Assembly: GCA_964612665.1 (NCBI GenBank)
Contig: CAZTCI010000004.1
Span: 78,376 to 142,375 of the forward strand
Reading direction: 5' to 3'
Length of the DNA: 64,000 nt
DNA from: an uncultured Planctomycetales bacterium
GTDB lineage: Bacteria > Omnitrophota > Gorgyraeia > Zapsychrales > JAHFFX01
Position numbers and translations under genes: made by a program
The notes under the pieces: generated by a model
Seen by the model: only the letters and a program-made list of their open reading frames with translations
Database searches by the model: none
What the model was told of the DNA's origin: nothing
Shown: positions 1,329 through 15,782 of the stretch, piece after piece
Layout: each line of letters begins with the position of its first letter
Numbering within the stretch: position 1 is the first letter of the stretch

Positions 1329-1910
1329 TTGAAAATGAAAAGAACGGTGGTTTTTTATCTGGTTTTTTATTTTGGCCTTTCCGTAATTTTCAGTAGTTGT
1401 GACCAGGTGTATCGAGTCCTTCAAAAAGAAGGCGCGGAAGAAAAAGATTTAGTTGGCGAACTTTTGCCTTTCGAGCCTAATCCTACCGTCCAGAAAATTC
1501 AAAGATTACTTAAGTTATATGGTTATGCGCCCGGGCCTGTCGATGGCAAGATGGGCACGAATACGCGTAATGCTGTCGCTCAATTTCAGCAGGACAATAA
1601 TTTAACGGTTAACCGGTTTGTCGACCAAGAGACATGGGCCTGCCTTAATCGTTTTGCCGCAAAAAGTCTCGTGCAAGACGGGCAGGTCAATACCGTGGCT
1701 GTACAAGCCGCCTTGCGTAAAGCGGGTTTAAATCCCGGGGGCATTGACGGCCGGTGGGGGAAACAAACGCAGAACGCTTTAGTTATGTTTCAAAAGTCGC
1801 ATAACCTTCATCCCGACGGGAGAATTGGTTATAAAACTTTAAACCAATTGATGGCGTATCTGCCTGAGCCAGAGGCTTCAAACTCTGGTGAGGCGGTGGC
1901 GGCACAATAG
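1329..1910 (+). CDS. Peptidoglycan-binding domain protein (2x PG_binding_1), probable lipoprotein
   Basis: 193 aa. Signal peptide ending FSSC (lipobox-like). Two repeats of the L(K/M)xYGYxPGxxDGxxGxxTxxAxxxFQ motif characteristic of the PG_binding_1 domain. Confidence 0.6.
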   Translation: MKMKRTVVFYLVFYFGLSVIFSSCDQVYRVLQKEGAEEKDLVGELLPFEPNPTVQKIQRLLKLYGYAPGPVDGKMGTNTRNAVAQFQQDNNLTVNRFVDQETWACLNRFAAKSLVQDGQVNTVAVQAALRKAGLNPGGIDGRWGKQTQNALVMFQKSHNLHPDGRIGYKTLNQLMAYLPEPEASNSGEAVAAQ

Positions 1911-1941
1911 TGATTAAGGGAAACAAATTTTGGGAAAATGA

Positions 1942-1968
1942 TTGTAAGAAAAAAAATGATGATATAAT
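1942..1968 (+). promoter_or_regulatory. Putative sigma70 promoter for sucCD with extended -10 (TGaTATAAT)
   Basis: TGATATAAT at 1960..1968, and TTGTAA about 15 nt upstream. It lies about 125 nt upstream of the sucC ATG. Confidence 0.3.
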
Positions 1969-1975
1969 GGGCCGA

Positions 1976-2084
1976 TTTCGTGGTTCGCTTTTTCGTTGTT
2001 CGAGGAATTCGTTTTTTTAGGTCTATAAAAATAAAAGAAAGAATTCTACGATTGACGCATAATCCTCATAACCACGAACGACGA
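1976..2084. repeat. MITE/REP-like palindromic intergenic repeat, copy A (5' UTR of sucC)
   Basis: Contains TCGTTGTTCGAGGAATTCGTT and ends in ACCACGAACGACGAT, the inverted complement of its 5' arm TCGTGGTTCG. It matches 20 of 21 nt plus the terminal arm of the second copy at 49298..49383. Confidence 0.55.
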
Positions 2085-2092
2085 TAAAACAA

Positions 2093-3223
2093 ATGAAAAT
2101 TCATGAATATCAAGCTGCAGACATTTTTCGTCAAGCCGGATTACCGGTGCCGGGCGGCCGAGTGGCTGTGACGCTCGCTGAGGCACAAGCTGTTGTCAAA
2201 GAGGTTGGCTTTCCGGTTGTTTTAAAATCTCAAGTGCTGGTCGGCGGGCGGGGCAAGGCCGGTGGCATTAAGATTGCCAAGAACGATCAAGAGCTTGAAA
2301 AGAATTTCAATGAGCTTAAGAAATTAGTTATTAAAGAATATCCAGTTGAAAAGATTCTCGTTGTCCGCGCGCTTGATATCAAAAAGGAATTTTACGTCGC
2401 GGTCACGATCGACAACATTAAAGGTGATGTCGTCATTATTGCCAGCGCCGAGGGCGGCGTTGATATTGAAGAAACCGCCAAGAAAAGTCCTGAAAAGATT
2501 CAAAAATTTTATCTGCAAGGCCAAAAAGATATTGACCTTTCCCGTTGGCCGTCTTTCATTAAAGCTGTCTTCCATGATCCTTCCCTTCAAGAGCCCGGTA
2601 CAAAAATTTTAAAGACCTTAATCGATGTTTTTTATAAAAACGATTGTTCGCTCGCCGAAATTAATCCGCTTGTTATCGACGGACAAGGAAAAATCTGGGC
2701 GGCGGACGCGAAGATTAATTTTGATGACAATGCTCTTTTTCGTCATGCAGAACTTCCTGGCTTACGAGATATGAAATATGAAGATCACGACGAGATTGAG
2801 GCTAAGCAGAATGATTTGAGTTTTGTCAAAATGGACGGGAATGTAGGTTGTATTGTCAACGGCGCCGGGCTTGCGATGGCGACGATGGATATTATTAAAT
2901 TAACCGGCGGCGATCCGGCGAACTTTTTAGATGTTGGCGGAAGTTCGAATCCGAAGAAAGTTTTGAATGCGTTAAGAATAATTTTACGGAATAAAAAAGT
3001 GAAATCTATTTTAATAAATATCTTCGGCGGAATTACCCGTTGCGATGATATTGCGTTAGGGATTTTGGAAGCTAAAAAAGAATTGGGTTCGCCCATTCCG
3101 CTCGTCGTGCGTTTGACCGGAACAAATGAAAAGGAAGCCAAAGATATTTTAGCCAAAAGTGGAATGAATACGTTCTCGACGATGCGTGAGGCTGTGAGTA
3201 AAGCGGTTGAATTGGCGAGATGA
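2093..3223 (+). CDS. sucC: Succinyl-CoA synthetase beta subunit (ADP-forming)
   Basis: 376 aa. MKIHEYQAADIF...VLKSQVLVGGRGKAGG aligns with the SucC N-terminal ATP-grasp region, and ...NGAGLAMATMDIIKLTGGDPANFLDVGG with the CoA-ligase domain. Confidence 0.93.
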   Translation: MKIHEYQAADIFRQAGLPVPGGRVAVTLAEAQAVVKEVGFPVVLKSQVLVGGRGKAGGIKIAKNDQELEKNFNELKKLVIKEYPVEKILVVRALDIKKEFYVAVTIDNIKGDVVIIASAEGGVDIEETAKKSPEKIQKFYLQGQKDIDLSRWPSFIKAVFHDPSLQEPGTKILKTLIDVFYKNDCSLAEINPLVIDGQGKIWAADAKINFDDNALFRHAELPGLRDMKYEDHDEIEAKQNDLSFVKMDGNVGCIVNGAGLAMATMDIIKLTGGDPANFLDVGGSSNPKKVLNALRIILRNKKVKSILINIFGGITRCDDIALGILEAKKELGSPIPLVVRLTGTNEKEAKDILAKSGMNTFSTMREAVSKAVELAR

Positions 3224-3370
3224 TTTACATGGGATGTAGGACGTTAGCACGTTGGACGTTCCCAGCGGTTTACGCCGGATTTAATATATGAACCACGAAA
3301 GTATTTTAGTGAAGATTGAAACGTTCTACATCCTACGTGCTCACGTCCTACGTAATAAGGATTTATACGA

Positions 3371-4240
3371 ATGAGTATTTTAATCGACGAAAATACACGA
3401 CTGTTAGTTCAAGGCATCACTGGACGCGACGGGTCATTTCATGCTCAGAAGATGCTTGAATATGGAACGAAGGTTGTGGCTGGCGTGACGCCGGGTAAAG
3501 GCGGTCAGGATGTCGGCGGGATTCTGGTTTTTAATTCCGTTAGTGAAGCCAAAAATAAAACGCAGGCCAACACCGCGGTCATTTATGTGCCGGCCAAATT
3601 TGCCAAGGATGCGATGTTGGAAGATTTGGCGGCGGGGATTGAGTTGATTATTTGTATCACGGAAGGCATTCCGGTTTTAGATATGGTTGAAGTTAAAAAA
3701 GCGATGGCGAAAACCAAAAGCCGTTTGATTGGACCGAATTGTCCGGGACTTATTTCTCCCGGGAAAAGTAAAGTTGGGATTATGCCTGGGCATATTCACA
3801 AGGCCGGGAACGTCGGTGTGATTTCGCGTAGCGGAACGTTGACCTATGAGGTGGTTTATAATTTGACAACGAATGGGATTGGACAATCCAGTTGCGTGGG
3901 ATTAGGCGGTGACCCCATTATTGGAACGCGGTTTGTTGATGTACTGGATCTTTTTATGCGGGACGCGGAGACAAAAGCGATTGTGATGGTCGGTGAGATC
4001 GGCGGCGAAGATGAGCAGATTGCGGCGCAATTTATAAAAAGTAAAGTGACTAAACCGGTTGTTGGTTTTATCGCCGGAAAAACAGCGCCTAAAGGCAAAC
4101 GTATGGGGCATGCCGGGGCGATTATTTCATCGGCAGATACTTCGGCGGAAAGTAAAGTTAAGGTGTTAAGAGATGCCGGTGTAACGGTTGTTGATTTTCC
4201 GGATGAAATTCCGCGGATTATTGCGCAGAAATTGAAATAA
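3371..4240 (+). CDS. sucD: Succinyl-CoA synthetase alpha subunit
   Basis: 289 aa. [24 protein letters not shown]...GVTPGKGG... is the canonical SucD CoA-binding N-terminus, and the catalytic His region GHAGAII is present. Confidence 0.93.
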
Positions 4241-4263
4241 AAATTTTGAAGTAAAAACAACGA

Positions 4264-4318
4264 GGGCTGGGCTGCCCGACATTTAGGAACGCGTGGCAGC
4301 CCAGCCCTTCGCTTTTTC
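4264..4318 (+). terminator. Rho-independent terminator after sucD
   Basis: GGGCTGGGCTGCC...GGCAGCCCAGCCC is a perfect 13-bp stem, followed by TTCGCTTTTTCTT. Confidence 0.7.
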
Positions 4319-4419
4319 TTCCTAAATTATGTATTGACCAGCCAACCAGAATGCCGTATGCTTTGCAACATGTGAGCATTGAAATAAGTTCACGCCTCTT
4401 TAACCTTTAAAAAGGCGCG

Positions 4420-5520
4420 TTGATGCGAAGAATTAAAAACGTTTTTCTATCCGCTATCCACCAGAATGCCGGCAAAACCACCATTGCCTTAGGCTTATAC
4501 AAAATTTTTAAAGACCGAAAACTTAAAGCCGCTTTTATGAAACCCGTCGGGCAAAAAGTGGTTAAAGTCAAAGACAAACAGGTTGATAAGGATTCCTATC
4601 TGATTGGAGAAGTTTATCATTGCTGGCAGCGTTTTAGAGAGATGAGCCCTATTACGCTTGAACGCGGATTTACCGAAAAATATATTTTCCATCCTGAAAA
4701 AGACCATTTGCGTTTGGAAATTGAAAAGGCCTTTAACCGCCTCAGCCGCGGGCAGGACGCTATTATAGTGGAAGGGACCGGTCATGCCGGCGTCGGCGCC
4801 GTCATTGATTTTTCAAATGCCGATGTCGCGCGGCTTTTAGGTTCGAAGGTCATTATTATTTCAGAAGGCGGCATCGGAAAAAGTATCGATGAAATCATTT
4901 TAAATAAAGCGCTGTTTGATTTAAATAACGTAGAAATCCTTGGTGTCATCATCAATAAAGTCCTGCCCGAAAAGTACCGCAAGATAAAAACCACTCTTGA
5001 ACAAGGATTAAAAAATAAAGGGATCCGGCTTTTGGGCATCATTCCGGTTGATCCGGTTTTAAAATCCCCGACGGTACGCCAGGTTATGAATCAAGCCGGT
5101 CTGGGACTTTTGTGTGGTAAAGAAAATTTAGATACGCATATCAATCATACGATCGTCGCAGCCATGGAACCGCAAAATATGATTACGCATTTAAGAGACG
5201 GCGCGCTCGTTATTACCTCTGGTGACCGTATTGACAATATGCTGGTTTCCATTAGCGCTCATCTCATTAGCCGCGGGACAAAATTTAATATCGCTGGCAT
5301 TATTTTAACCGGAGGCATGGTTCCTGACATTAAGATCATTGATCTTTTGAAAAAGAGCCGGATTTCCGTTTTGCTGTCTCCCCATGATACGTATACCGTG
5401 GCGGGAAAGATTGAATCTTTAGTTTGTAAAATTGAAAAGACCGACAAAGATAAAATCGCGCAAGCCACGCGTTTAGTCAGGAAATACGTGGATATCGAGA
5501 CGATTATCAAAAATTTATAA
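4420..5520 (+). CDS. Phosphotransacetylase N-terminal-like protein (AAA_26 P-loop-like plus DRTGG domain), lacking the PTA_PTB catalytic domain
   Basis: 366 aa. The N-terminal ...SAIHQNAGKTTIALGL is BioD/CobQ-like. ...GALVITSGDRIDNMLVSISAHL matches the DRTGG motif of the N-terminal regulatory half of long-form Pta (E. coli LLVTSADRPDVLVAA). No acetyltransferase domain follows. The start codon is TTG or ATG at 4420/4423. Confidence 0.55.
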   Translation: MMRRIKNVFLSAIHQNAGKTTIALGLYKIFKDRKLKAAFMKPVGQKVVKVKDKQVDKDSYLIGEVYHCWQRFREMSPITLERGFTEKYIFHPEKDHLRLEIEKAFNRLSRGQDAIIVEGTGHAGVGAVIDFSNADVARLLGSKVIIISEGGIGKSIDEIILNKALFDLNNVEILGVIINKVLPEKYRKIKTTLEQGLKNKGIRLLGIIPVDPVLKSPTVRQVMNQAGLGLLCGKENLDTHINHTIVAAMEPQNMITHLRDGALVITSGDRIDNMLVSISAHLISRGTKFNIAGIILTGGMVPDIKIIDLLKKSRISVLLSPHDTYTVAGKIESLVCKIEKTDKDKIAQATRLVRKYVDIETIIKNL

Positions 5521-5527
5521 CAACGAG

Positions 5528-6727
5528 ATGTCCAAGACGTCACAACAATCTATCTGGATTATCGATGCGCTGCGAACCGCAATTGCTCGTCCCGGACAGA
5601 GCCTGAATAATTTTTCGGCGGCGCAATTAAGCGCTGTTGTTATCCGTGATATTTTAAGCCGTAGCCGTATTTCTTTTAAGCTTGTTGAACAGTGTATTGT
5701 GGGAAATGCCGTCAGCGCCGGGACTGGACAGAATATCGCCCGCCAAGCAGCGGTGATCGCCGGGCTTCCTGATACTGTTCCTTCTTTTAGCGTCAATCAT
5801 GTTTGCGGTTCAGCCATGCAGGCGGTGATTTTGGCATCGCAATCTATTTTAGCGGGAGATCATAATTGCGTTATCGCCGGTGGCACCGAAAGTGCTTCAT
5901 TCAGTCCCTATCTTGAATTTAATAATAGAATGACAACTCAGGGTTCTTCAGTGATTGATGCAGGAGTTTTGGGACGCGTAGAAAGTTTGATTCACGACGG
6001 ATTATTTTGCCAATTGACGCGTATGCATATGGGCCAGCTCGCAGAATATCTTAGTCGGAAATTTGATATCAGCCGCAGCGTGCAGGATAAATTTGCGTTG
6101 GACAGCCACCGCAAGGCCTGCGCCGCGCAACAGGCCGGTAAATTCCGTGATGAAATTGTTCCTGTAAACATTTTACCGTATCAAGCATTTGACCGTGATG
6201 AACGGCCGCGGCGCAATATCGATGTATTAAAGTTAGGTGATTTACCGGCGGCGTTTCAAAAAAATGGAACCGTGACGGCCGGAAATTCATCGCCGCCTTC
6301 TGACGGCGCTTGCAATTTGATTATTGCTTCCAACGATTTTGTAAAGAAGTACCGGATAACGCCCAAGGCTAAAATTCTCGGTTATAGTTCAATCGCCGTG
6401 CCGCCTCAAGAAGTTTTTACCGCCGGCGTTACCGCTGTGAAAGTTTGTTTGAAGAAATGCGGGTTAAGGTTTAAAGATATTGATTTGTTTGAAATCGGAG
6501 AGGCGTTTGCGACGCAGGTGATTTACACGCGCGATCACTTAAAAATTCCGGATAACCAGATGAATGTTTGGGGCGGGGATATTGCTTTAGGTCATCCTTT
6601 GGGCGCGGCGGGCGGACGGATTTTAGTGACATTGATTCATGCTCTTCGCGATGCCAAGAAAAATATTGGTCTGGCGTGTGTTTGTCTCGGCGGAGGTGGC
6701 GCGTTGGCGATCGTCGTGGAAATTTAA
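5528..6727 (+). CDS. Acetyl-CoA C-acetyltransferase (thiolase family)
   Basis: 399 aa. ...NHVCGSAMQAVILASQSILAGDHNCVIAGGTESAS... is the thiolase N-terminal active-site Cys region, and the C-terminal ...CVCLGGGGALAIVVEI is the thiolase signature. Confidence 0.85.
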   Translation: MSKTSQQSIWIIDALRTAIARPGQSLNNFSAAQLSAVVIRDILSRSRISFKLVEQCIVGNAVSAGTGQNIARQAAVIAGLPDTVPSFSVNHVCGSAMQAVILASQSILAGDHNCVIAGGTESASFSPYLEFNNRMTTQGSSVIDAGVLGRVESLIHDGLFCQLTRMHMGQLAEYLSRKFDISRSVQDKFALDSHRKACAAQQAGKFRDEIVPVNILPYQAFDRDERPRRNIDVLKLGDLPAAFQKNGTVTAGNSSPPSDGACNLIIASNDFVKKYRITPKAKILGYSSIAVPPQEVFTAGVTAVKVCLKKCGLRFKDIDLFEIGEAFATQVIYTRDHLKIPDNQMNVWGGDIALGHPLGAAGGRILVTLIHALRDAKKNIGLACVCLGGGGALAIVVEI

Positions 6728-6740
6728 GTGAATAAAGAAC

Positions 6741-6785
6741 GCGGGCGGCCCTGTACCAGACTCGGTACAGGGCCGCCCAGCGCAA
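6741..6785 (+). terminator. Rho-independent terminator after the thiolase gene
   Basis: GGGCGGCCCTGTACC-agactc-GGTACAGGGCCGCCC is a perfect 15-bp stem. Confidence 0.6.
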
Positions 6786-6812
6786 TTAATCAAAGGATTT
6801 GAAAAAATTTAT

Positions 6813-8054
6813 ATGACTAAAACCTTACCTTCGAGAGAAAAAAATAAAAAATTAAAGATTTCGCAAAATGAAGAACTGAAAATTTTGCGCACCATCGTCG
6901 ATATCACCAGTTCGGAGCTCGATTTGAATTTGATATTAAAAGAAGTCGTCAAGGTTGTCACCCAATTTACATCAGCGGATTCAGTCTTTATTTACCTCTA
7001 CGATAGTAAAAAAGAACATTTGGTGTTAATGGCTTCTAAAATTCCACATGACAAAATTCTTGGCAAAATTAATTTAAAAGCAGGCGAAGGGATTACCGGA
7101 TGGGTGGCTCAAGAAAATCGTCCCGTCGCCATCAAAAAGAACGCCTACAAAGATTCTCGCTTTAAAAGTTTTTATGTTCTCCCCGAAGATAAATATGAAG
7201 CTTTTCTTTCCGTTCCTATTGAATATAAGGCCAATACGATTGGCGTCATCAATGTTCAACATCGCCGGCCACATGAATATGCGACTGGCACGGTGAATTT
7301 AATTCAAACAATTGCCAAACAAGTCGGCGGTGTCATTGAAAACGCGCGTTTGTTTGAATTTACGAAACAAAAAGCCGCTCAGTTCGACAGTTTAATTAAA
7401 GTCAGTCATTCCATCAGCTCTGAGCATTATTTAGATGAGATCTTGGATCTCATTGTGGTTGTCACGGCGGAGATGTTAAATTCTAAGATTTGTTCGATCA
7501 TGCTGCTGGATGACAAAGGCGAAGAGCTTGTCATGAAGGCAACGCAGTCTTTGAGCAAAGACTATAAAACAAAACCAAACGTCAAAGTTGAAAAGAGTTT
7601 AAGTGGAGAAGTGATCAAATCTAAAAAACCGATTTCCGTTTATGATGTCCGTCAGGAAGAAAGATATTACTATCGTGATTTAGCCATTAAAGAAGAATTG
7701 ACGTCGATGTTGTCAGTGCCGATGATTCTTAAAGAAAAAGCGATTGGTATCATTAATGTCTATACAAAAACGCCGCATCATTTCAGCCAAGAAGAGATTG
7801 ATGTTCTGCAGATTGTCGCTAACCAAGCGGCGGTTGCAGTTGAGAATACCAAACTCATGCAAGAAGCCATGAAAGCTAAAGAAGCGCTTGAAACCAGGAA
7901 AATTATCGAACGCGCCAAAGGCATTCTGATGCGGATGAATAATTTATCCGAAGACGCCGCTTATAAACTCATTCATAAAAAAAGCATGGATTCTTGCCGT
8001 TCCATGAAGGAAATTGCCGAGTCGATTATTTTGATGTCTGAACTTCAAAAGTAA
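6813..8054 (+). CDS. GAF-GAF-ANTAR RNA-binding antitermination regulator
   Basis: 413 aa. Two GAF-like segments (...KAGEGITGWVAQENRPV..., ...KSLSGEVIKSKKPISVYD...). The C-terminal ETRKIIERAKGILMRMNNLSEDAAYKLIHKKSMDSCRSMKEIAESIIL matches the ANTAR consensus (ERAKGiLM...s..eAy..l...Sm). Confidence 0.8.
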   Translation: MTKTLPSREKNKKLKISQNEELKILRTIVDITSSELDLNLILKEVVKVVTQFTSADSVFIYLYDSKKEHLVLMASKIPHDKILGKINLKAGEGITGWVAQENRPVAIKKNAYKDSRFKSFYVLPEDKYEAFLSVPIEYKANTIGVINVQHRRPHEYATGTVNLIQTIAKQVGGVIENARLFEFTKQKAAQFDSLIKVSHSISSEHYLDEILDLIVVVTAEMLNSKICSIMLLDDKGEELVMKATQSLSKDYKTKPNVKVEKSLSGEVIKSKKPISVYDVRQEERYYYRDLAIKEELTSMLSVPMILKEKAIGIINVYTKTPHHFSQEEIDVLQIVANQAAVAVENTKLMQEAMKAKEALETRKIIERAKGILMRMNNLSEDAAYKLIHKKSMDSCRSMKEIAESIILMSELQK

Positions 8055-8068
8055 TTTGAGATTCTATA

Positions 8069-8097
8069 AATCGGCGCTTGACAATAAGCAAAGAAAA
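8069..8097 (+). promoter_or_regulatory. sigma70-type promoter P1 (TTGACA-N17-TATACT)
   Basis: TTGACA at 8069..8074, a 17-nt spacer, and TATACT at 8092..8097. The arrangement is near-identical to P2 at 8709..8737. Confidence 0.6.
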
Positions 8098-8143
8098 GAT
8101 ATACTTAAGTTGTTATTAAGGTCAATGAAGACCGAAGCAAGGT

Positions 8144-8197
8144 CAGGGCAAGGATGTCCGACGAGGTTTTGAAGCAGTAACCAAGTCGGATTTTTTT
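8144..8197 (+). terminator. Leader 1: conserved box CAGGGCAAGGATGTCCGAC plus intrinsic terminator (candidate ANTAR target)
   Basis: Stem TCCGAC(GAGGTT)...(AACCAA)GTCGGA followed by TTTTTTT at 8191..8197. The 19-nt box at 8144..8162 recurs at 8797..8815. Confidence 0.6.
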
Positions 8198-8226
8198 ATG
8201 TTGTAGAGCAGTTAAATAAGTTTTAA

Positions 8227-8281
8227 GGGCAAAGACGTCCTCTTTTAAAAAGCAAAGGTGCTTTTAAAAGGGGATTTTTTT
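8227..8281 (+). terminator. Second intrinsic terminator in leader 1, preceded by a third GGGCAAAG-CGTCC box
   Basis: AAGGGCAAAGACGTCC, then hairpin CCTCTTTTAAAA-agcaaaggtgc-TTTTAAAAGGGG, then ATTTTTTT. Confidence 0.5.
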
Positions 8282-8330
8282 ATGCCAAAACGGTTAAGGA
8301 AAACCAACAAAACGCGAAAGGAGAGATCTT

Positions 8331-8474
8331 ATGAGACAACAAAACTTTGTTAGAGCATCTCACCGAATGTTAATCAAAAAAATGCGTGATTATGGAATTC
8401 ATTCCTCTAATCGGTTGATAATTTCCTCGAAAGAAGGGGCTTTTGGGAAAGGAGGAAACAAACGATGTCATTAG
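8331..8474 (+). CDS. Hypothetical small protein (47 aa) with strong SD (AAAGGAGAG)
   Basis: ORF MRQQNFVRASHRMLIKKMRDYGIHSSNRLIISSKEGAFGKGGNKRCH, read directly from the sequence. The RBS is 7 nt upstream. It is not in the ORF track because it is under 60 aa. Confidence 0.25.
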   Translation: MRQQNFVRASHRMLIKKMRDYGIHSSNRLIISSKEGAFGKGGNKRCH

Positions 8475-8671
8475 ACCACTCGATCGTGTCGGCTACCGAC
8501 ATATTTATGGTAGAAAAGTCAGTTATTGAAGCGGCGGCTTATAAAATGAGTACTCTTAATAATAGAGTTGATCCTTTGATTGCAGAAAATTTGAGCGAGC
8601 TTCAAGATGGCAGTAGGAGTAAAAACCTCGATATATTAAGTACTTCGAACGAAAAGTTAAAACGATTTTAA
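8465..8671 (+). CDS. Hypothetical small protein (68 aa) with strong SD (GGAAAGGAGG)
   Basis: ORF from the track. The GGAAAGGAGGA RBS sits 8 nt before the ATG. The ORF lies between terminator-gated leader 1 and promoter P2. No recognisable domain. Confidence 0.3.
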   Translation: MSLDHSIVSATDIFMVEKSVIEAAAYKMSTLNNRVDPLIAENLSELQDGSRSKNLDILSTSNEKLKRF

Positions 8672-8708
8672 TTTTAGCTCGACGGAACTTATGGCTCTTA
8701 AAAAAAAC

Positions 8709-8737
8709 TTGACAAAGAAATAGCAGGCTTATATACT
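8709..8737 (+). promoter_or_regulatory. sigma70-type promoter P2 (TTGACA-N17-TATACT), a duplicate of P1
   Basis: TTGACA at 8709..8714, a 17-nt spacer, and TATACT at 8732..8737. Confidence 0.6.
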
Positions 8738-8796
8738 TTGGGCAATTTTAAAGGCATTGATGTCTTTAAAAATTTCTGGAATCGAATAATCAGGAA

Positions 8797-8849
8797 CAGG
8801 GCAAAGGTGTCCGACTTATATCCGTTTTGCGGATGGGGTCGGATTTTTT
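8797..8849 (+). terminator. Leader 2: conserved box CAGGGCAAAGGTGTCCGAC plus intrinsic terminator upstream of amtB (candidate ANTAR target)
   Basis: Stem TCCGAC...GTCGGA with an inner ATCCG/CGGAT stem, followed by TTTTTT at 8844..8849. The box matches 18 of 19 nt of the leader-1 box. Confidence 0.6.
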
Positions 8850-8963
8850 ATTTTTAGCCCTAAAGAGGGCTTAAGATTATTCCAGACGCGCGGATGGGGC
8901 GGTGAAGTCCTCTTTAGGTTTCAAATAAAAAGCGTAATCGTATTTACAAAGGGAGGATAAGTC

Positions 8964-10196
8964 ATGGATCAGATTAATAGCGGAGATACAGCATGGGTTT
9001 TGGCGTCATCAGCGCTGGTTTTGCTTATGACACCGGGGTTGGCTTTCTTTTATGGAGGCATGGTTAGAAGGAAGAATGTTTTAAGTATTTTAATGCAGTG
9101 TTTTACAGTTATTTGCATTGTTAGTTTGCAATGGGTTTTGTTTGGATACAGCCTGGCTTTTGGGCCGGGCAATGCTTTTATTGGAGGTTTACAGTGGTTT
9201 GGATTAAATGGCGTCGGGCTTGATCCTTACGCAGATTATTCAGCTACGATTCCTCATCAAGCTTTTATGATTTTCCAGGCGATGTTTGCGGTTATTACGC
9301 CTGCTTTGATCCTTGGCTCTTTTGCCGAAAGAATGAAATTCTCAGCTTTTATTCTCTTCATTCTTTTGTGGGCAACTTTTGTTTATGACCCGATCTGCCA
9401 TATGGTTTGGGCGGTTGGCGGCTTAGTCAGAAACTGGGGCGCGCTTGATTTCGCCGGCGGAACGGTCGTTCATATTAATGCCGGTATCGCTGGTTTATGC
9501 ACCGCTTTACTTCTTGGCAAGAGATTAGGTTATGAAAATAGATCTTTCGCGATTCACAATCTTCCCTGGACGGTATTAGGCGCTGGTTTATTGTGGTTCG
9601 GCTGGTTTGGGTTTAATGCCGGAAGTGCTTTGGCTGCGAATGGATTGGCCGCGAGTGCTTTTGTTGTGACCAATACGGCAACGGCAGCAGCAGGTTTGAG
9701 CTGGGCTCTTCTGGAATGGAAATTTAATGGAAAGCCTACGATGTTAGGGATGGTCAGCGGTGCGGTCGCAGGTTTGGTTGCTATTACACCGGCCTCTGGC
9801 TATGTGAATGTTATGGGATCAATTGTGATCGGTCTTTTGGTCAGCGTTTTCTGCTACATCGCAGTCCTTTTGAAAGCCAAATTTGGCTATGATGACTCAT
9901 TGGATGCGTTTGGTGTCCACTGCATCGGCGGGATTTGGGGAGCTATTGCAACAGGCTTCTTTGCCACCAAAACTATTAATTCCGGCGGTGGAGACGGTTT
10001 ATTTTTCGGTAATCCCGCGCAGGTTCTTGTTCAGGTAAAGGCGGTTCTCGTGACTATTATCTATTCTTTTGTGGTCACGGCTATTATCTTTAGGATAGTG
10101 GACATGATTGTTGGTGTGAGAGTAACTTCTGAAGACGAAGTTTTGGGTCTAGATCTTACTCAGCATCATGAACGCGCATATACAATTTTAGAATAG
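8964..10196 (+). CDS. amtB: Ammonium transporter
   Basis: 410 aa. Multi-TM protein. ...AWVLASSALVLLMTPGLAFFYGGMVRRKN... and ...DFAGGTVVHINAGIAGL... are Amt/MEP signatures. Confidence 0.9.
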   Translation: MDQINSGDTAWVLASSALVLLMTPGLAFFYGGMVRRKNVLSILMQCFTVICIVSLQWVLFGYSLAFGPGNAFIGGLQWFGLNGVGLDPYADYSATIPHQAFMIFQAMFAVITPALILGSFAERMKFSAFILFILLWATFVYDPICHMVWAVGGLVRNWGALDFAGGTVVHINAGIAGLCTALLLGKRLGYENRSFAIHNLPWTVLGAGLLWFGWFGFNAGSALAANGLAASAFVVTNTATAAAGLSWALLEWKFNGKPTMLGMVSGAVAGLVAITPASGYVNVMGSIVIGLLVSVFCYIAVLLKAKFGYDDSLDAFGVHCIGGIWGAIATGFFATKTINSGGGDGLFFGNPAQVLVQVKAVLVTIIYSFVVTAIIFRIVDMIVGVRVTSEDEVLGLDLTQHHERAYTILE

Positions 10197-10242
10197 TTTT
10201 GCATTTAAAATTGATTCCGATGAGGACTAAGGAGGAATATAA

Positions 10243-10584
10243 ATGAAATTAATTATGGCTATTATCCAACCGCATAGATTGGAAGAAGTGAAAAAAGCTT
10301 TATATGAAGCTGATGTGAACTTAATTACTGTCAGTGAAGTTTTAGGTCATGGCCGGCAAAAAGGTGTCGACGAATTTTATCGTGGCACTAAAGAAAGCGG
10401 CAATCTTTTAAGAAAAATTCAGTTAGAGATTGCGGTTAATGAAAATTTTGTCGAACCAACGATTAAAGCCATCATCAAAGGTGCACGGACTGGAAAAATC
10501 GGGGATGGAAAAATATTTGTTCTCGATTTGCCGCGGTGTATCCGCATCCGTACCGGCGATGAAGGGTCGCAGGCGATAGGTTAA
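10243..10584 (+). CDS. glnK: Nitrogen regulatory protein P-II
   Basis: 113 aa. [41 protein letters not shown]...FYRG... is the P-II fold with a T-loop Tyr. Its position immediately after amtB is typical of glnK. Confidence 0.88.
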
Positions 10585-10588
10585 AAGA

Positions 10589-10641
10589 CCAGTGGGCGCC
10601 CCGCATTCGCCGATCAAAGGCTAGGCGGGGCGCCCGTGGTT
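10589..10641 (+). terminator. Rho-independent terminator after glnK
   Basis: GTGGGCGCCCCGC...GCGGGGCGCCCGTGG hairpin, followed by TTTCATTT. Confidence 0.55.
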
Positions 10642-10754
10642 TCATTTGACGCCATTCCCAACCTCTGTTACAATCCTTTACAAAATTTTAGACACATAAA
10701 TGTTTTCCGATTTTTATCAACACCAAAATTTTAAATCAAAAAGGAGACAATTTC

Positions 10755-12941
10755 ATGGCTCAACAACGCGAAGGTGCCCGCAGGCAAGTCGTTCAAGATT
10801 CCGTCGAGAATCAGAAGACTTTGCTGCAAGAACTTTTAAATGAAGGAAAACAAAACGGTAATGGCGCTGGATTGTCTGAATTTTACGGCAAAGACGTCTT
10901 TAGTTTAAAGACCATGCGCAATTACCTTTCAGAAAAAGCTTACAACTCATTAGTTTCAACCATCCAACAAGGTGGCAAACTTGACCCGAACATCGCCGAT
11001 GAAGTCGCTGACGCGATGAAGACCTGGGCTGTTTCAAAAGGCGCCACCCACTTTACACATTGGTTTCAACCACTCACCGGCACGACCGCCGAAAAACACG
11101 ATTCGTTCATTTCCCCGGACGGCGAAGGCGGAGTTCTCTTAAAATTTTCAGGCAAAGAACTTATCCAAGGCGAACCCGACGCCTCGAGTTTCCCTTCAGG
11201 CGGCTTAAGAGCTACCTTTGAAGCGAGAGGTTATACGGCTTGGGATCCAACGAGCCCTGCTTTTATTAAAGAAGGTCCTGAAGGCGCCACCCTTTGTATT
11301 CCGACGGTATTCTGCGGTTACAACGGCGAAGCGTTAGACAAAAAGACACCGTTGTTGCGTTCGATGGCTGCGTTATCCAAGCAAGTTTGCCGTCTGGCGA
11401 CATTGTTTGGTATTGATACTAAAGGAAAACGCGCTTACGCGACACTCGGACCGGAACAAGAATATTTTTTAATCGATAAAGCTCATTACGAAGCGCGTCT
11501 GGATTTAGTCCAAACCGGCCGCACGCTTTTCGGCCGCAAACCTGCCAAACATCAGCAGCAAGAAGATCATTATTTTGGCGCGATCAAACCGCGCGTTATT
11601 GCTTTTATGGAAGATTTGGATCGAACGTTATGGCGATTATCCATTCCAGCCAAAACACGGCATAACGAAGTAGCTCCTGCCCAATATGAAATTGCTCCAG
11701 TTTTCGAAGAGTTAAATTTAGCCGTCGATCACAATATGATTGCGATGGAAATCATGCGTCAAACCGCTGATAAACATGGTTTTGTTTGTTTGCTTCATGA
11801 AAAACCGTTTGCCGGCGTTAATGGTTCCGGAAAACACAACAACTGGGCCATCGTTGGTCCCGACGGGAAAAATTGGTTGTATCCTGGCAAAACGCCGCAT
11901 GACAACGCTAAATTCTTAACCATCCTTTGCGCGGTTATTAAAGGTGTTGATACTTACGCTGGTTTGTTGCGTGCAACCGTTGCGACCGCCGGCAACGATC
12001 ATCGCCTCGGAGCTAACGAAGCGCCGCCGGCGATTGTTTCCATCTTTTTAGGCGACCAACTTTATGACATCATTGAACAAATTGAAAAAGGCGGCGCTAA
12101 AAGTTCTAAAGAAGGCGGCACCATCCACATTGGTGTCGATTCTTTACCCGTCCTTCCACGTGATGCAACCGATCGTAACAGAACATCACCTTTCGCTTTT
12201 ACCGGTGCTAAATTCGAATTCCGCGCGGTTGGTTCCAACATGAATCCGTCGGGCCCGAATGTAGTTCTAAACACAATCGTCGCCGAGGCGTTGGATGAAA
12301 TCTGTACGGAATTAGAAGCCGCCGTTAAAGCCAAAAAGGATTTCAATTCGGCTTTACAAAAAGTTCTTCAAGATACTATTAAAAAACACAAGCGCGTTCT
12401 TTATAATGGTGATAATTATATTGATCAGTGGCATGCCGAAGCGAAGAAGCGCGGGCTTCCGAATATGAAGTCAACGCCCGAATCGCTGCAAGTTCTTAAA
12501 GAGGAAAAGAACATCCGTGTTTTCGAAAAGCACGGTGTCTTGAGCCGCAAAGAACTGGCTTCGCGTTTTGAAATTTATAAGCATGCTTACGAAACGATCA
12601 TTCAGCTGGAAGGCAGCTGTGCGTCAACTGTTGCGCGCACCGAAATTCTTCCGGGTGCGATAGCTTTCCAAAGAGAACTCGCGGAAACAATTAAAATCGT
12701 CGGCGCCGCCGGCAAAACAACCGGAGCTAAAAAACTTCTTAAAGAAGTTTCCGGCTTGATTGATGAAGCCTTGGCCGCTTGTGATAGTTTGGACACAGCC
12801 TTGGCGAAACATGATTCAGCCAAGACCAATGCGGCGATGGCTAAACTTCGCGCCGCCATCGACAGTTTAGAGGCGTTGGTTCCGGCAGAAAAATGGCCGC
12901 TTCCGTCGTACGCAGAGATGTTACTCATGAATGCCGAGTAA
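10755..12941 (+). CDS. glnN: Glutamine synthetase type III
   Basis: 728 aa, the GSIII size class. A catalytic glutamine-synthetase domain sits in the middle (...[11 protein letters not shown]...). The RBS is AAAAGGAGA. Confidence 0.85.
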
Positions 12942-12996
12942 AAATTGAAACAAGGGGCTTCGTGAGAATAACCGCCCCTGTTAGAATAGAAATTAA

Positions 12997-13030
12997 AGCC
13001 CAGGGGTTGAAACACACCCCTGGGCTTTTT
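12997..13030 (+). terminator. Rho-independent terminator after glnN
   Basis: AGCCCAGGGGT-tgaaacac-ACCCCTGGGCT followed by TTTT. Confidence 0.65.
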
Positions 13031-13204
13031 AATGAGCGCATTATTTGCCATCGAGATTACGAACTTTTATCTCGATGGCAAATAGAAGCGCGAATTAACC
13101 CCCGTAAAAGATAGGTTGTTAATTCACGCTTTTTACGGGGTGTTCGACGCCCAAAGAGCAGATTGTTTTTAGTCTAACAAGTGAGGTTATGGAGCGAGCA
13201 TTAA

Positions 13205-13912
13205 ATGATTTTAATTGCGAAGCACATAGATATCGAAGGTCCGGGAACGTTCGGAGATTTTTTAAAAGAACGTAAACTTCCCTTTACGATCGTTGAACTT
13301 GGTTCCAGCGAGAAATTACCAAGAGATCTGAAAGAAATTCAAGCCGTTGTTGTCTTAGGCGGTCCAATGAATGTTTATGAAGAAGATAAATATCCTTTTT
13401 TAAAAGAAGAAAACCGTTTTATTCAAAACGTTGTTCAAGAGGAAATTCCTTATCTCGGCATTTGTTTGGGTTCTCAGTTGTTGGCCAAGGCCTGCGGTGC
13501 GCCGGTCGTTAAGTCGCCGGTCAAAGAAGTCGGCTGGTATAAAATCCGTTTAACGCCCGACGGCAAAAAAGATCTTTTCCTCAAAGGGTTCGATCCTAAG
13601 ATTGATATTTATCACTGGCACGAAGACATGTTTCAAATTCCGTCAAACGGCGTTTTGTTAGCCACAAGTGACGGCTGTCCGCATCAAACCTTTCGCGTCG
13701 GCAAAAACGCCTACGGCATTCAGTTTCATATTGAAGTGACGGACAAAAGTATTAAGGAATGGTCCGATGAGTACTGCCAAAAAGATCTGCCGGGCCGGCA
13801 GGAACAACGTGCCGCAATGCTTGAAGGTTACGCAAAAAACAAAGAAGCGTTTCGCAAACAAGCGTTTCAAATTTATAATAATTTCTTAGAGCTTATAAGG
13901 AAAGAAAAATGA
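13205..13912 (+). CDS. Class-I glutamine amidotransferase (GMP-synthase-like GATase1)
   Basis: 235 aa. ...PYLGICLGSQLLAKACGA... has the catalytic Cys, and ...YGIQFHIEV... the His/Glu pair of the GATase1 triad. Confidence 0.7.
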   Translation: MILIAKHIDIEGPGTFGDFLKERKLPFTIVELGSSEKLPRDLKEIQAVVVLGGPMNVYEEDKYPFLKEENRFIQNVVQEEIPYLGICLGSQLLAKACGAPVVKSPVKEVGWYKIRLTPDGKKDLFLKGFDPKIDIYHWHEDMFQIPSNGVLLATSDGCPHQTFRVGKNAYGIQFHIEVTDKSIKEWSDEYCQKDLPGRQEQRAAMLEGYAKNKEAFRKQAFQIYNNFLELIRKEK

Positions 13913-15615
13913 TTGGAGTCGGATTAATGCGTCTCGCCCTTGCTCAAATTAATCTTACCGTCGGAGATTTGCTTGGTAATCAAGCGAAGATTATTGAGTC
14001 GATTGCTCAGGCACGGCTGAAGGAAGCGGATGTTGTCGTTTTTCCGGAAATGGCCGTAGCCGGTTATCCGCCGGAAGATCTTTTATATAAGGAACATTTC
14101 ATTCGCGACAACCTCCGCGCCTTGCAAAAAATAATTGCCCAAACTCAGAATATAACCGCGATTGTTGGTTTTGTTGACCACGATAAAAATAAAAATTTGT
14201 ACAACGCGGCGGCTGTTATTTCAAACGGTCAATTAAAAGATGTTGTCCACAAACGAGACCTTCCAAATTACGGTGTCTTCGATGAGAAAAGATATTTTGT
14301 GGCAGGAAAAAGTGCGGGTTTATATAATATTAATGGTCACAGCGTCGGGATTAGTATTTGCGAAGATATTTGGAAAGGCGATGGATTATCCGTTGCGCAA
14401 GCCAAAGCGGGCGCCAAGATTTTGATTAACATTTCAAGTTCCCCTTACTATGAAGGTAAAATTCGCGTCCGTGAAAAAATGTTAAAAGCGCGCGCGTGTG
14501 AGACAAAAGCTTTTATTGCTTATGTGAATTTGGTCGGCGGGCAAGATGAATTGGTTTTCGACAGCGGGAGTTTTGTTTTTAATCCAAAAGGAAAAATCCT
14601 GGCGCGGGCCAAACAGTTTGAGGAAGAATTGTTGGTATGTGACGTAAAACTTCCCGCGAATAAGATTTCTAAAAAATTTATTAAAGTCAGTGCCCCAAAG
14701 TTAGTTCATAAAAAAATTAAGATTGAAAACGTTTTGGCGCCTCTTCTCGAACCGGTTGCCGAAGTTTATCAAGCTTTGGTTGTTGGGACGCGCGATTATG
14801 TTCAAAAGAATGGATTCAAAAAAGTTTTGATCGGCTTAAGCGGCGGCATTGATTCTTCGCTGGTTGCGGCCATCGCTTGTGATGCGCTGGGACGGGAGAA
14901 TGTCGTCGGAGTTACAATGCCTTCGCGGTATTCTTCTCAAGAAACACTGGCCGATGCGAAAATTTTGGCGAAGAATTTAGGAATCCGCTGTATCGAAGTA
15001 CCAATAGAAGATATTTTGAAATCTTATTTCGGGACTTTAAGCAAAGAATTCGCCGGCCTCGCGCCTAATATTGCCGAGGAAAATATTCAGGCGCGAATCC
15101 GTGGGAATATTCTTATGGCATTCTCCAATAAATTCGGCTGGCTGGTCTTGACGACGGGCAACAAAAGTGAAATGGCGGTCGGTTATTGCACATTGTATGG
15201 CGACATGGCGGGCGGATTTGCCGTTATTAAGGATGTTCCCAAAATAAAGGTTTATGAGTTATGTTCGTATAGAAATAAAAAAGCCGGCAGACTGCTTATT
15301 CCGCAAAGTGTTTTTGACCGGGCTCCGACAGCTGAATTGCGTGAGAATCAAAAAGATGAAGATTCCTTACCACCTTATAAAGAATTAGATCCGATATTGC
15401 AGAGTTATGTAGAGAAACGAGAGGATCTCTCTAAAATACTTAAACATTATAAGAACTGCGAATGGGTCAAAGACACAATCCGCCGGGTTAATAGCAGCGA
15501 ATATAAGCGCCGCCAGGCGCCGCCCGGTGTTAAAATATCCGCGAGGGCGTTTGGAAAGGATTGGCGGTTGCCGATTACAAACAAATATAAGGAATTTTAT
15601 TCTGCTTCGCCCTAG
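13909..15615 (+). CDS. nadE: Glutamine-dependent NAD+ synthetase (nitrilase domain plus NAD synthetase)
   Basis: 568 aa. The N-terminal CN-hydrolase is ...VVVFPEMAVAGYPPEDL...ICEDIW.... The C-terminal PP-loop is GLSGGIDSSLVAA. Confidence 0.88.
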   Translation: MIGVGLMRLALAQINLTVGDLLGNQAKIIESIAQARLKEADVVVFPEMAVAGYPPEDLLYKEHFIRDNLRALQKIIAQTQNITAIVGFVDHDKNKNLYNAAAVISNGQLKDVVHKRDLPNYGVFDEKRYFVAGKSAGLYNINGHSVGISICEDIWKGDGLSVAQAKAGAKILINISSSPYYEGKIRVREKMLKARACETKAFIAYVNLVGGQDELVFDSGSFVFNPKGKILARAKQFEEELLVCDVKLPANKISKKFIKVSAPKLVHKKIKIENVLAPLLEPVAEVYQALVVGTRDYVQKNGFKKVLIGLSGGIDSSLVAAIACDALGRENVVGVTMPSRYSSQETLADAKILAKNLGIRCIEVPIEDILKSYFGTLSKEFAGLAPNIAEENIQARIRGNILMAFSNKFGWLVLTTGNKSEMAVGYCTLYGDMAGGFAVIKDVPKIKVYELCSYRNKKAGRLLIPQSVFDRAPTAELRENQKDEDSLPPYKELDPILQSYVEKREDLSKILKHYKNCEWVKDTIRRVNSSEYKRRQAPPGVKISARAFGKDWRLPITNKYKEFYSASP

Positions 15616-15782
15616 ACAATATAGATGGTATGGCTTCGCAGCAATTGTTTCTTCAATCAATATTGCTTCAAAGAAGAATAATTTGCATATTTTAAAAAAG
15701 ACGTTAAAATGTTTACTCCAATTGAGGATACAAAATTTTCCATCTCGATTTTGGGACGAAAATGACGAGGAGATAAGTTTCA

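Follow-up and report, generated by a model that had tools for sequence, protein, structure and literature searches.

Predicted ANTAR-type attenuation leaders associated with a GAF-GAF-ANTAR regulator in a nitrogen-assimilation locus of Omnitrophota

Results

Organization of the regulator-amtB region

We analyzed a 64-kb stretch of DNA, hereafter the window, from an uncultured bacterium deposited under Planctomycetales and placed by GTDB in Omnitrophota (assembly GCA_964612665.1, contig CAZTCI010000004.1, positions 78,376 to 142,375). The subject of this report is a gene in the window that encodes a one-component regulator with two GAF domains and an ANTAR domain, together with the 909-bp stretch that precedes the ammonium transporter gene amtB. 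This stretch contains two promoters and three units, each with a box hairpin, a partner hairpin and an intrinsic terminator. In units 1 and 2 the upstream partner hairpin is designated P1 and the box hairpin P2. The main features, in the order in which they occur, are as follows:

6813..8054, + strand: one-component regulator of GAF-GAF-ANTAR architecture, 413 amino acids (aa), assigned by Pfam
8078..8105, + strand: promoter 1, TTGACA-N16-TATACT, 11 of 12 consensus positions
8120..8133, + strand: unit 1 P1 hairpin GGUC-AAUGAA-GACC, found by structural scan and formed in the truncated-leader fold
8146..8159, + strand: unit 1 P2 hairpin (box) GGGC-AAGGAU-GUCC, after a linker of 12 nucleotides (nt) from P1
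8157..8197, + strand: terminator 1, UCCGAC...GUCGGA plus U7 (hairpin 8157-8190, U 8191-8197), its UCC common to the P2 3' arm
8226..8241, + strand: box hairpin of unit 3, AGGGC-AAAGAC-GUCCU, which comes first in a terminator-apex (type B) pair
8237..8281, + strand: terminator 3, CCUCUUUUAAAAAGC-AAAGGU-GCUUUUAAAAGGGG plus U7 (hairpin 8237-8274, U 8275-8281), found by folding
8248-8265, + strand: unit 3 second hairpin AAAAGC-AAAGGU-GCUUUU, the apex of terminator 3, with an A1/G4 hexaloop (A at loop position 1, G at position 4) and a 6-nt linker
8709..8737, + strand: promoter 2, TTGACA-N17-TATACT, A-tract upstream, 11 of 12 consensus positions
8746..8771, + strand: unit 2 P1 hairpin UUUUAAAGGC-AUUGAU-GUCUUUAAAA, found by structural scan and folding
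8799..8812, + strand: unit 2 P2 hairpin (box) GGGC-AAAGGU-GUCC, after a 27-nt linker from P1
8810..8849, + strand: terminator 2, UCCGAC...GUCGGA plus U6 (hairpin 8810-8843, U 8844-8849), found by folding
8964..10196, + strand: amtB (Pfam Ammonium_transp, 8.6e-130)
10243..10584, + strand: glnK/P-II (Pfam P-II, 3.2e-26)

The regulator combines two GAF domains with a conserved RNA-binding domain

Pfam GAF_2 matched twice in the regulator (4e-40), the N-terminal 345 residues of which form two GAF domains, and the ANTAR domain (PF03861) was found at aa 355-406 with 74.0 bits against a cut-off of 27.3. Neither a receiver domain (Response_reg) nor a NIT domain was matched by Pfam in this protein. The ANTAR part matches the Protein Data Bank (PDB) structures 6wsh (EutV), 1s8n (Rv1626) and 4akk (NasR) at 1e-9 to 1e-7, with the 4akk alignment confined to that part. 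In EutV, residues R142, K149, E160 and Y164 hold the flipped-out G4 and the loop backbone of the hexaloop (PMC8934654); all four are conserved in the regulator, where they align with R362, K369, E380 and Y384, and the first three are invariant among 19 regulator homologues. Homologues numbered 5489 at E<=1e-20, the best 120 of which are all at least 72% identical and share the same architecture. These homologues identify the source as Candidatus Omnitrophota. Both GAF domains are very strongly conserved across species, with a mean column identity of 79%.

Promoter 1 lies 24 nt past the end of the regulator gene. Promoters 1 and 2 are the top sigma-70 matches within positions 6000-16000. A first-pass annotation of this DNA had described them as almost identical, each with an N17 spacer. 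Promoter 2 was as described (8709, N17), but promoter 1 lies at 8078 and not 8069, its spacer is N16, and the two promoters share little outside their hexamers. Transcription from promoter 1 is predicted to start at about 8112, 8 nt 5' of the P1 hairpin, and the P1 hairpins of units 1 and 2 both start within a few nt of the predicted transcription start. The terminators lie inside the leaders, 40-100 nt past the promoters, and not at operon ends.

Each box is a hexaloop hairpin that shares nucleotides with a terminator

The box pattern GGGCAANNNNGTCC is present in exactly three copies in the window (8146, 8227 and 8799, all on the + strand). Shuffling gave a chance expectation of 0.11, and none of 100 shuffles reached three copies. 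That each copy is followed by a terminator hairpin and a U-run, as the first-pass annotation had proposed, is real and not due to chance, as judged by shuffling and folding. It had been overlooked that the box itself is a hexaloop hairpin and that it has partner hairpins (the upstream P1). The hairpin has the form GGGC-ANNGNN-GUCC with a G.U stem pair and an A1/G4 loop, and its 3' arm doubles as the initial 3-4 nt of the intrinsic terminator's 5' arm.

A structural scan of the window for two A1/G4 hexaloop hairpins in succession with a U-run behind them returned only 8120-8159, 8226-8265 and 8746-8812. A1 and G4 are present in both loops of each pair (AAUGAA/AAGGAU in unit 1, AUUGAU/AAAGGU in unit 2 and AAAGAC/AAAGGU in unit 3). 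Pattern-plus-folding scans with strand and background controls were preferred to a covariance model as more transparent, the linker being variable (4-46 nt) and the hairpins small. At the Rfam gathering score no family was found in the leaders, and only two tRNAs reach that score in the window; the best sub-threshold match in 8055-8965, to RF02663 (GmglnB1 5' UTR; 8219-8277, minus strand), scored 20.1 bits versus 54 (E 0.58) and does not constitute a match.

The units had also been regarded as duplicated. Their similarity is in fact confined to the box region (28 nt, 79% identical) and to the terminator 3' arm GTCGGATTTTTT; a true duplication was rejected, given that only these functional elements are alike.

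Hexaloop and terminator folds are mutually exclusive and similar in energy

Truncated leaders fold as two hairpins, and full-length leaders fold as the terminator, using the UCC of the box 3' arm. Antiterminator energies were obtained from folds in which the hexaloop hairpins were enforced and were compared with the terminator fold. The values for the terminator and the hexaloop-enforced state were -20.4 versus -18.3 kcal/mol in unit 1 (difference 2.1), -16.3 versus -14.8 kcal/mol in unit 3 (difference 1.5) and -30.3 versus -29.5 kcal/mol in unit 2 (difference 0.8). The alternative antiterminator structure that had been anticipated for these leaders can be drawn in all units: a box hairpin of 4-5 bp takes the basal 3-4 nt of the terminator, and the leftover hairpin then ends three unpaired nt before the U-tract. 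Because the two states differ by 0.8-2.1 kcal/mol, the switch appears to be finely poised, such that a modest protein binding energy would flip it.

In the full-length fold of leader 1, the P1 3' arm GACC (from 8130) pairs with GGUC at 8141-8144 and P1 is not formed, which represents a possible third alternative structure.

The motif and its pairing are conserved among Omnitrophota

For comparative analyses, 80 regulator-carrying loci, chosen via regulator homology, were fetched from Omnitrophota species genomes and searched with the strict box pattern GG[GA]CA..G..G[TC]CC. The motif recurs in 55 of these loci. They contain 102 box copies in total, 100 of which are on the regulator's strand and nearly all downstream of the regulator, whereas about 1.6 would be expected per strand. 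The third stem pair of the box is G.U in 64 copies, A-U in 23, G-C in seven and a mismatch in six. Since the dominant G.U pair forms only in RNA of the regulator's strand, the box is likely to act as RNA of that strand rather than as a DNA site.

Box-terminator units were defined by a box 3' arm that starts a terminator hairpin with a folding energy of at most -9 kcal/mol and a U-run after it. Eighty such units were collected, 77 from relatives and three from the window, and these are not the same set as the 80 loci. As in the window, the box 3' arm supplies the start of the terminator in the 77 units counted in relatives. Of the 80 units, 30 have a partner A1/G4 hexaloop upstream (against a background of 4.2%; p 6e-21), and 17 have one in the terminator apex (against 1.8%; p 5e-14).

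Orthologous amtB leaders were aligned from seven species. Their TTGACA is invariant, the -10 element reads TATAYT (TATA-T invariant) and the upstream A-tract is largely conserved. P1 has the form (C/U)UAAAGGC-NNNGNN-GUCUUUAG, and P2, with an invariant stem, the form GGGC-ANNGNN-GUCC, followed by a terminator of variable sequence. All alignment cells (100%) are paired in both P1 and P2, as compared with 37-70% in slid-partner controls, and three P1 pairs have changed on both sides. The type B element, in which a box abuts a hexaloop-apex terminator, was recovered independently by BLASTN in seven relatives. In an alignment of 12 type B sequences, 92.9% of cells were paired, a value that none of 500 shuffles equaled, and compensatory changes were found in the apex stem. 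Both box and partner are conserved in the orthologous leaders of relatives, where compensatory changes accompany them.

As a negative control, and not for definition of a regulon, metagenomes were scanned with the pattern GGGCANNGANGTCCTCTT. In six of the at least 120 matching stretches listed, the box is followed by a fold that resembles a terminator; 118 of those listed appear to be chance matches, with neither a regulator nor nitrogen genes nearby.

The leaders precede nitrogen-assimilation genes

Downstream of glnK lies glnN, which is followed by genes for a glutamine amidotransferase (GATase), nadE, gltB and a gltD-like gene. Two features concern glnN:

10646-10674: glnN's own promoter, TTGACG-N17-TACAAT, with an extended -10 TG
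10755..12941: glnN, type III glutamine synthetase, downstream of glnK

The second unit had been described as directly preceding amtB-glnK-glnN. Since glnN has its own promoter and no ANTAR motif, amtB-glnK is the only part that can be placed clearly under this leader. Likewise, no ANTAR motif was found in the window before the GATase gene, nadE, gltB or the gltD-like gene, and the additional targets suggested before gltB and nadE were therefore not recovered. In the interval 10590-10674, which also takes in the glnN promoter, glnK is first followed by a hairpin rich in G+C, GGGCGCCCCGC...GCGGGGCGCCC, whose U-run is weak.

In about 36-42 of the 80 loci, the amtB-glnK pair is located downstream of the regulator, usually behind ANTAR-type leaders. 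Most box copies in relatives overlap terminators upstream of amtB-glnK, glnN, glnA or nirBD, and the genes preceded by the motif also include those for a 71-aa DUF2934 protein and a Gcw_chp porin-like protein. In L203, the closest syntenic relative (regulator 85% identical), the motif precedes nirB-nirD and a nitrate-transporter-like gene, and the locus repeats the tandem arrangement of the window, i.e., a canonical unit and then a type B-like unit. In the same locus, a restriction-modification pair (N6_N4_Mtase and RE_EcoO109I; 7256-9446) is inserted between the regulator and the leaders. In 11 relatives (L025, 5764-5970, L027, L029, L032, L040, L043 and others), but not in the window, a conserved small open reading frame (ORF), hydrophobic at its C-terminus, stops immediately ahead of the Shine-Dalgarno sequence of amtB.

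Other features of the locus

The stretch before amtB had been considered to be non-coding. It contains two small ORFs with strong ribosome-binding sites, in addition to a possible further unit next to amtB:

8322..8474, + strand: orphan small ORF of 50 aa behind leader 1, with a GGAG/GGAGG Shine-Dalgarno sequence
8465..8671, + strand: orphan small ORF of 68 aa, overlapping the former, likewise with a GGAG/GGAGG Shine-Dalgarno sequence
8896-8911 (unit 8896..8959), + strand: hairpin GGGGC-GGUGAA-GUCCU, a tentative fourth, degenerate unit (repeat family D1)

The small ORFs have no match in Pfam, no tblastn match in the 80 loci and no match to the DUF2934 profile of the relatives, and the 68-aa ORF matched only itself in a large protein database. 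In eight relatives, the equivalent slot holds the gene for the conserved 71-aa DUF2934 protein. A hairpin with an A1/G4 hexaloop, GGUU-AAGGAA-AACC (8292-8305), is located 26 nt past the terminator 3 hairpin and is without a terminator of its own; a short direct repeat, CAAAACGGTTAAGGA / CAAAACGCGAAAGGA, adjoins it.

The 3' flank of hairpin 8896-8911, GUCCUCUUU, pairs with the amtB Shine-Dalgarno sequence AAAGGGAGGAU (8949-8959) in the minimum free energy (MFE) fold, and the MFE fold of 8906-8966 has a z of -2.8. The loop of this fourth box hairpin has G, not A, at position 1. A fourth box with Shine-Dalgarno pairing was not found upstream of amtB in relatives. From the folding model, this hairpin might add a translational layer to the switch, acting at the ribosome-binding site of amtB.

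Upstream of the regulator, genes of carbon metabolism are frequently found, i.e., sucC, sucD, and genes for an AAA_26-DRTGG protein and a thiolase (window 1329-6727; also L203, L004, L021, L036, L056 and L065). The gap between the thiolase gene and the regulator contains a hairpin without a U-run, and the regulator may for this reason be co-transcribed with the preceding genes.

Discussion

A proposed attenuation mechanism

We consider it probable that the leaders described here mediate ANTAR-type transcription attenuation of nitrogen assimilation by the GAF-GAF-ANTAR regulator. The domains of the protein, the RNA structures and their mutual exclusivity, their conservation and covariation, and their link to nitrogen genes are all shown computationally, and from these we infer that the protein would bind the leaders and bring about antitermination in vivo in response to a nitrogen-related ligand. 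Two strong, constitutive-looking sigma-70 promoters would each start a short leader. By default, the slightly stabler terminator would form and transcripts would stop at the U-tracts 8191-8197, 8275-8281 and 8844-8849. An active GAF-GAF-ANTAR protein would bind the A1/G4 hexaloops of the box hairpin and of its partner hairpin, the latter being located upstream in units 1 and 2 and in the terminator apex in unit 3. With the box hairpin held closed, the G-C-rich basal pairs of the terminator next to the U-tract would be lost, and RNA polymerase would read through into the small ORFs from leader 1 and into amtB-glnK from leader 2. The tandem GAF module would report nitrogen status, with glutamine switching RNA binding off or 2-oxoglutarate switching it on, and read-through would be expected under nitrogen limitation.

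Several points weigh against this interpretation. In unit 3, the box overlaps the terminator base and the second hairpin is the terminator apex, a layout that departs from the published ANTAR model. The linker of unit 2 is 27 nt, and those of its orthologues 12-46 nt, as against the 5-12 nt limit of EutV. Under the strict rule, the partner hexaloop is absent in 36 of the 80 units. G4 never varies among the aligned leaders of relatives, but some P1 loops, such as those of L056 and L066, have G at their first position. Boxes of some relatives have loops of 7-8 nt (GGGC-AAAGAUU-GUCC, GGGCATTGATAAGTCC) or G at loop position 1 (L201 7225-7530, L040, L044, L045, L046 and L029); because such loops occur, a strict A1/G4 hexaloop search would under-count targets. 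The two nearest species-genome relatives, L001 and L002, have no motif adjoining the regulator. The co-occurrence of box and regulator was tested mostly one way, the loci having been picked via the regulator, and in the very small reverse test only L093 and L157 among the metagenome matches listed have the regulator and nitrogen genes (glnN, amtB-P-II) beside the box. Finally, the entire case was made in silico, with only candidate ligands for the tandem GAF domains.

Comparison with known ANTAR systems

The RNA mechanism is of the known ANTAR kind. A study of 2012 predicted ANTAR RNAs in many bacteria upstream of the genes for P-II, ammonium transporters and glutamine synthetase (PMC3369931), and A1/G4 hexaloop hairpins are the published ANTAR-binding signature (PMC3369931, PMC8934654). 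The closest known system is GnfK/GnfR of Geobacter sulfurreducens, in which the ANTAR protein GnfR relieves premature termination in leaders of nitrogen genes, amtB and glnK among them; the site that GnfR was shown to bind, CAGGCAANGGCGCC, precedes and overlaps the terminators and is near-identical to the box CAGGGCAA(A)GGNGUCC found here (PMC2995071). The Geobacter comparison drawn in the first-pass annotation was accordingly apt, although its list of targets (amtB-glnB, glnA) was imprecise. The two systems differ in that GnfR is a receiver-ANTAR response regulator that is phosphorylated by the kinase GnfK and expressed from RpoN/GnfM-dependent promoters, whereas the present regulator is a one-component GAF-GAF-ANTAR protein and its leaders start at sigma-70-type promoters. 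The protein would thus resemble GnfR in its action on RNA but falls outside the receiver-ANTAR class. GnfR furthermore serves mainly nif genes, and no nif genes were seen here.

EutV/EutW of Enterococcus faecalis (PMC3369931, PMC8934654) resembles the present system in having two A1/G4 hexaloop hairpins, the terminator-proximal one being mutually exclusive with the terminator, and tandem attenuators in one locus; the RNA-contacting R, K, E and Y residues are conserved here. EutV is, however, a response regulator for ethanolamine use. It requires a linker of 5-12 nt, with 3 or 14 nt abolishing induction (PMC3369931), a rule known for EutV alone; the linkers here are 12 nt in unit 1, 6 nt in unit 3 and 27 nt in unit 2, and reach 12-46 nt in amtB leaders. 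In addition, the overlap between box and terminator here amounts to no more than 3-4 nt, and the use of the terminator apex as second hexaloop in unit 3 falls outside the EutV model.

The characterized one-component ANTAR proteins are NasR, with a NIT domain, and PAL, with a PAS-LOV module (PMC7496416). Both have sensor and ANTAR domain in one polypeptide, as does the protein described here, and Klebsiella NasR controls nitrate assimilation by leader antitermination; the sensor here is, in contrast, a tandem GAF. We found no literature on characterized GAF-ANTAR proteins or on GAF-ANTAR regulation of nitrogen genes (cf. PMC3369931, PMC7496416). New in the present system are the tandem-GAF one-component sensor and the terminator-apex layout; the long, variable linkers are a further difference from EutV.

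The signal and alternative explanations

Among solved structures, GAF1 is most closely related to the GAF domain of PtsP/EI-Ntr (3ci6, 6e-20; 3trc, 9e-14). The latter binds glutamine and reports nitrogen status (PMC4848567), and differs in that the output of EI-Ntr is a phosphotransferase and not an RNA-binding domain. In four relatives (L057, 5272-7578; L067, L071 and L073), the regulator is directly followed by ptsP, which encodes EI-Ntr (GAF and PEP-utilising domains) with a GAF about 32% identical to that of the regulator. Given the resemblance of GAF1 to a glutamine-binding GAF and this position of ptsP, a nitrogen-status ligand is plausible. The earlier suggestion was that the GAF module could sense 2-oxoglutarate or another metabolite; 2-oxoglutarate itself is conjecture, and glutamine is at least as likely.

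A different means of control, which we regard as unlikely but still as the strongest competitor, would retain the RNA mechanism but take its input from a protein partner and not from a small molecule in the GAF domains. The partner, either GlnK/P-II or a PTS-Ntr component, would modify the regulator or bind to it, much as AmiC controls AmiR and NasS controls NasT, and a feedback loop would result, given that glnK is a target. The location of glnK in the regulated operon and of ptsP directly beside the regulator in the same four relatives would fit such a scheme, and partner-controlled pseudo-receiver ANTAR proteins, an established subclass (PMC7496416), offer a precedent. Nevertheless, two complete and strongly conserved GAF domains fit a ligand pocket, GAF1 resembles a GAF that binds glutamine, and no partner gene is consistently adjacent.

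That the regulator acts mainly on translation via ribosome-binding sites, the terminators being ordinary operon boundaries, is in our view very improbable. Mycobacterial ANTAR RNAs have been described as freeing or blocking ribosome-binding sites, and hairpin 8896-8911 is followed by an anti-Shine-Dalgarno sequence for which the MFE fold shows pairing to the ribosome-binding site of amtB. This pairing is not conserved in relatives, however, and the loop of the fourth box lacks A1; moreover, the box 3' arm is the start of a terminator with U-run in all 80 units counted, and the terminators are situated in leaders shortly after promoters rather than at operon ends.

Slightly less credible still is control of the attenuators by a metabolite riboswitch or another RNA-binding factor, or a box that serves as DNA operator: binding of the leader by the adjacent ANTAR protein is indeed a prediction, and the box, read as DNA, forms an imperfect inverted repeat, but Rfam gave no match at gathering score (the best one being sub-threshold and on the wrong strand), paired A1/G4 hexaloops have been published as the signature of ANTAR targets (PMC3369931), hairpins of this size are too small for a ligand pocket, and the motif lies downstream of the predicted transcription start. 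The DNA-operator reading was specifically rejected, as the dominant G.U stem pair and the 100:2 strand bias point to RNA.

Attenuation by the GAF-GAF-ANTAR protein may also be cast in a broader form, which we put forward tentatively and to which we would give somewhat less than an even chance. The tandem-GAF ANTAR protein might be a phylum-wide one-component master switch of Omnitrophota nitrogen assimilation that senses glutamine or 2-oxoglutarate directly via an EI-Ntr-like GAF. It would use both the canonical and an apparently undescribed apex layout, with an antiterminator that steals the bottom three G-C pairs, and perhaps a translational layer at amtB.

Significance

To our knowledge, GAF-ANTAR proteins form a large, catalogued class that is functionally uncharacterized, and Omnitrophota have no cultured representative. 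The locus and its relatives give a GAF-ANTAR protein a defined RNA target, a regulon (amtB-glnK, glnN, glnA and nirBD) and a testable ligand hypothesis. The apex layout and linkers of up to 46 nt indicate that the spacing and order of the two hexaloops are freer than EutV-derived rules, which matters for searches for ANTAR targets. Given that the regulator is more than 70% identical across many Omnitrophota species, it is probably central to their physiology, and the concrete prediction that follows from the locus is that nitrogen uptake in Omnitrophota would be regulated after transcription has been initiated from promoters that look constitutive.

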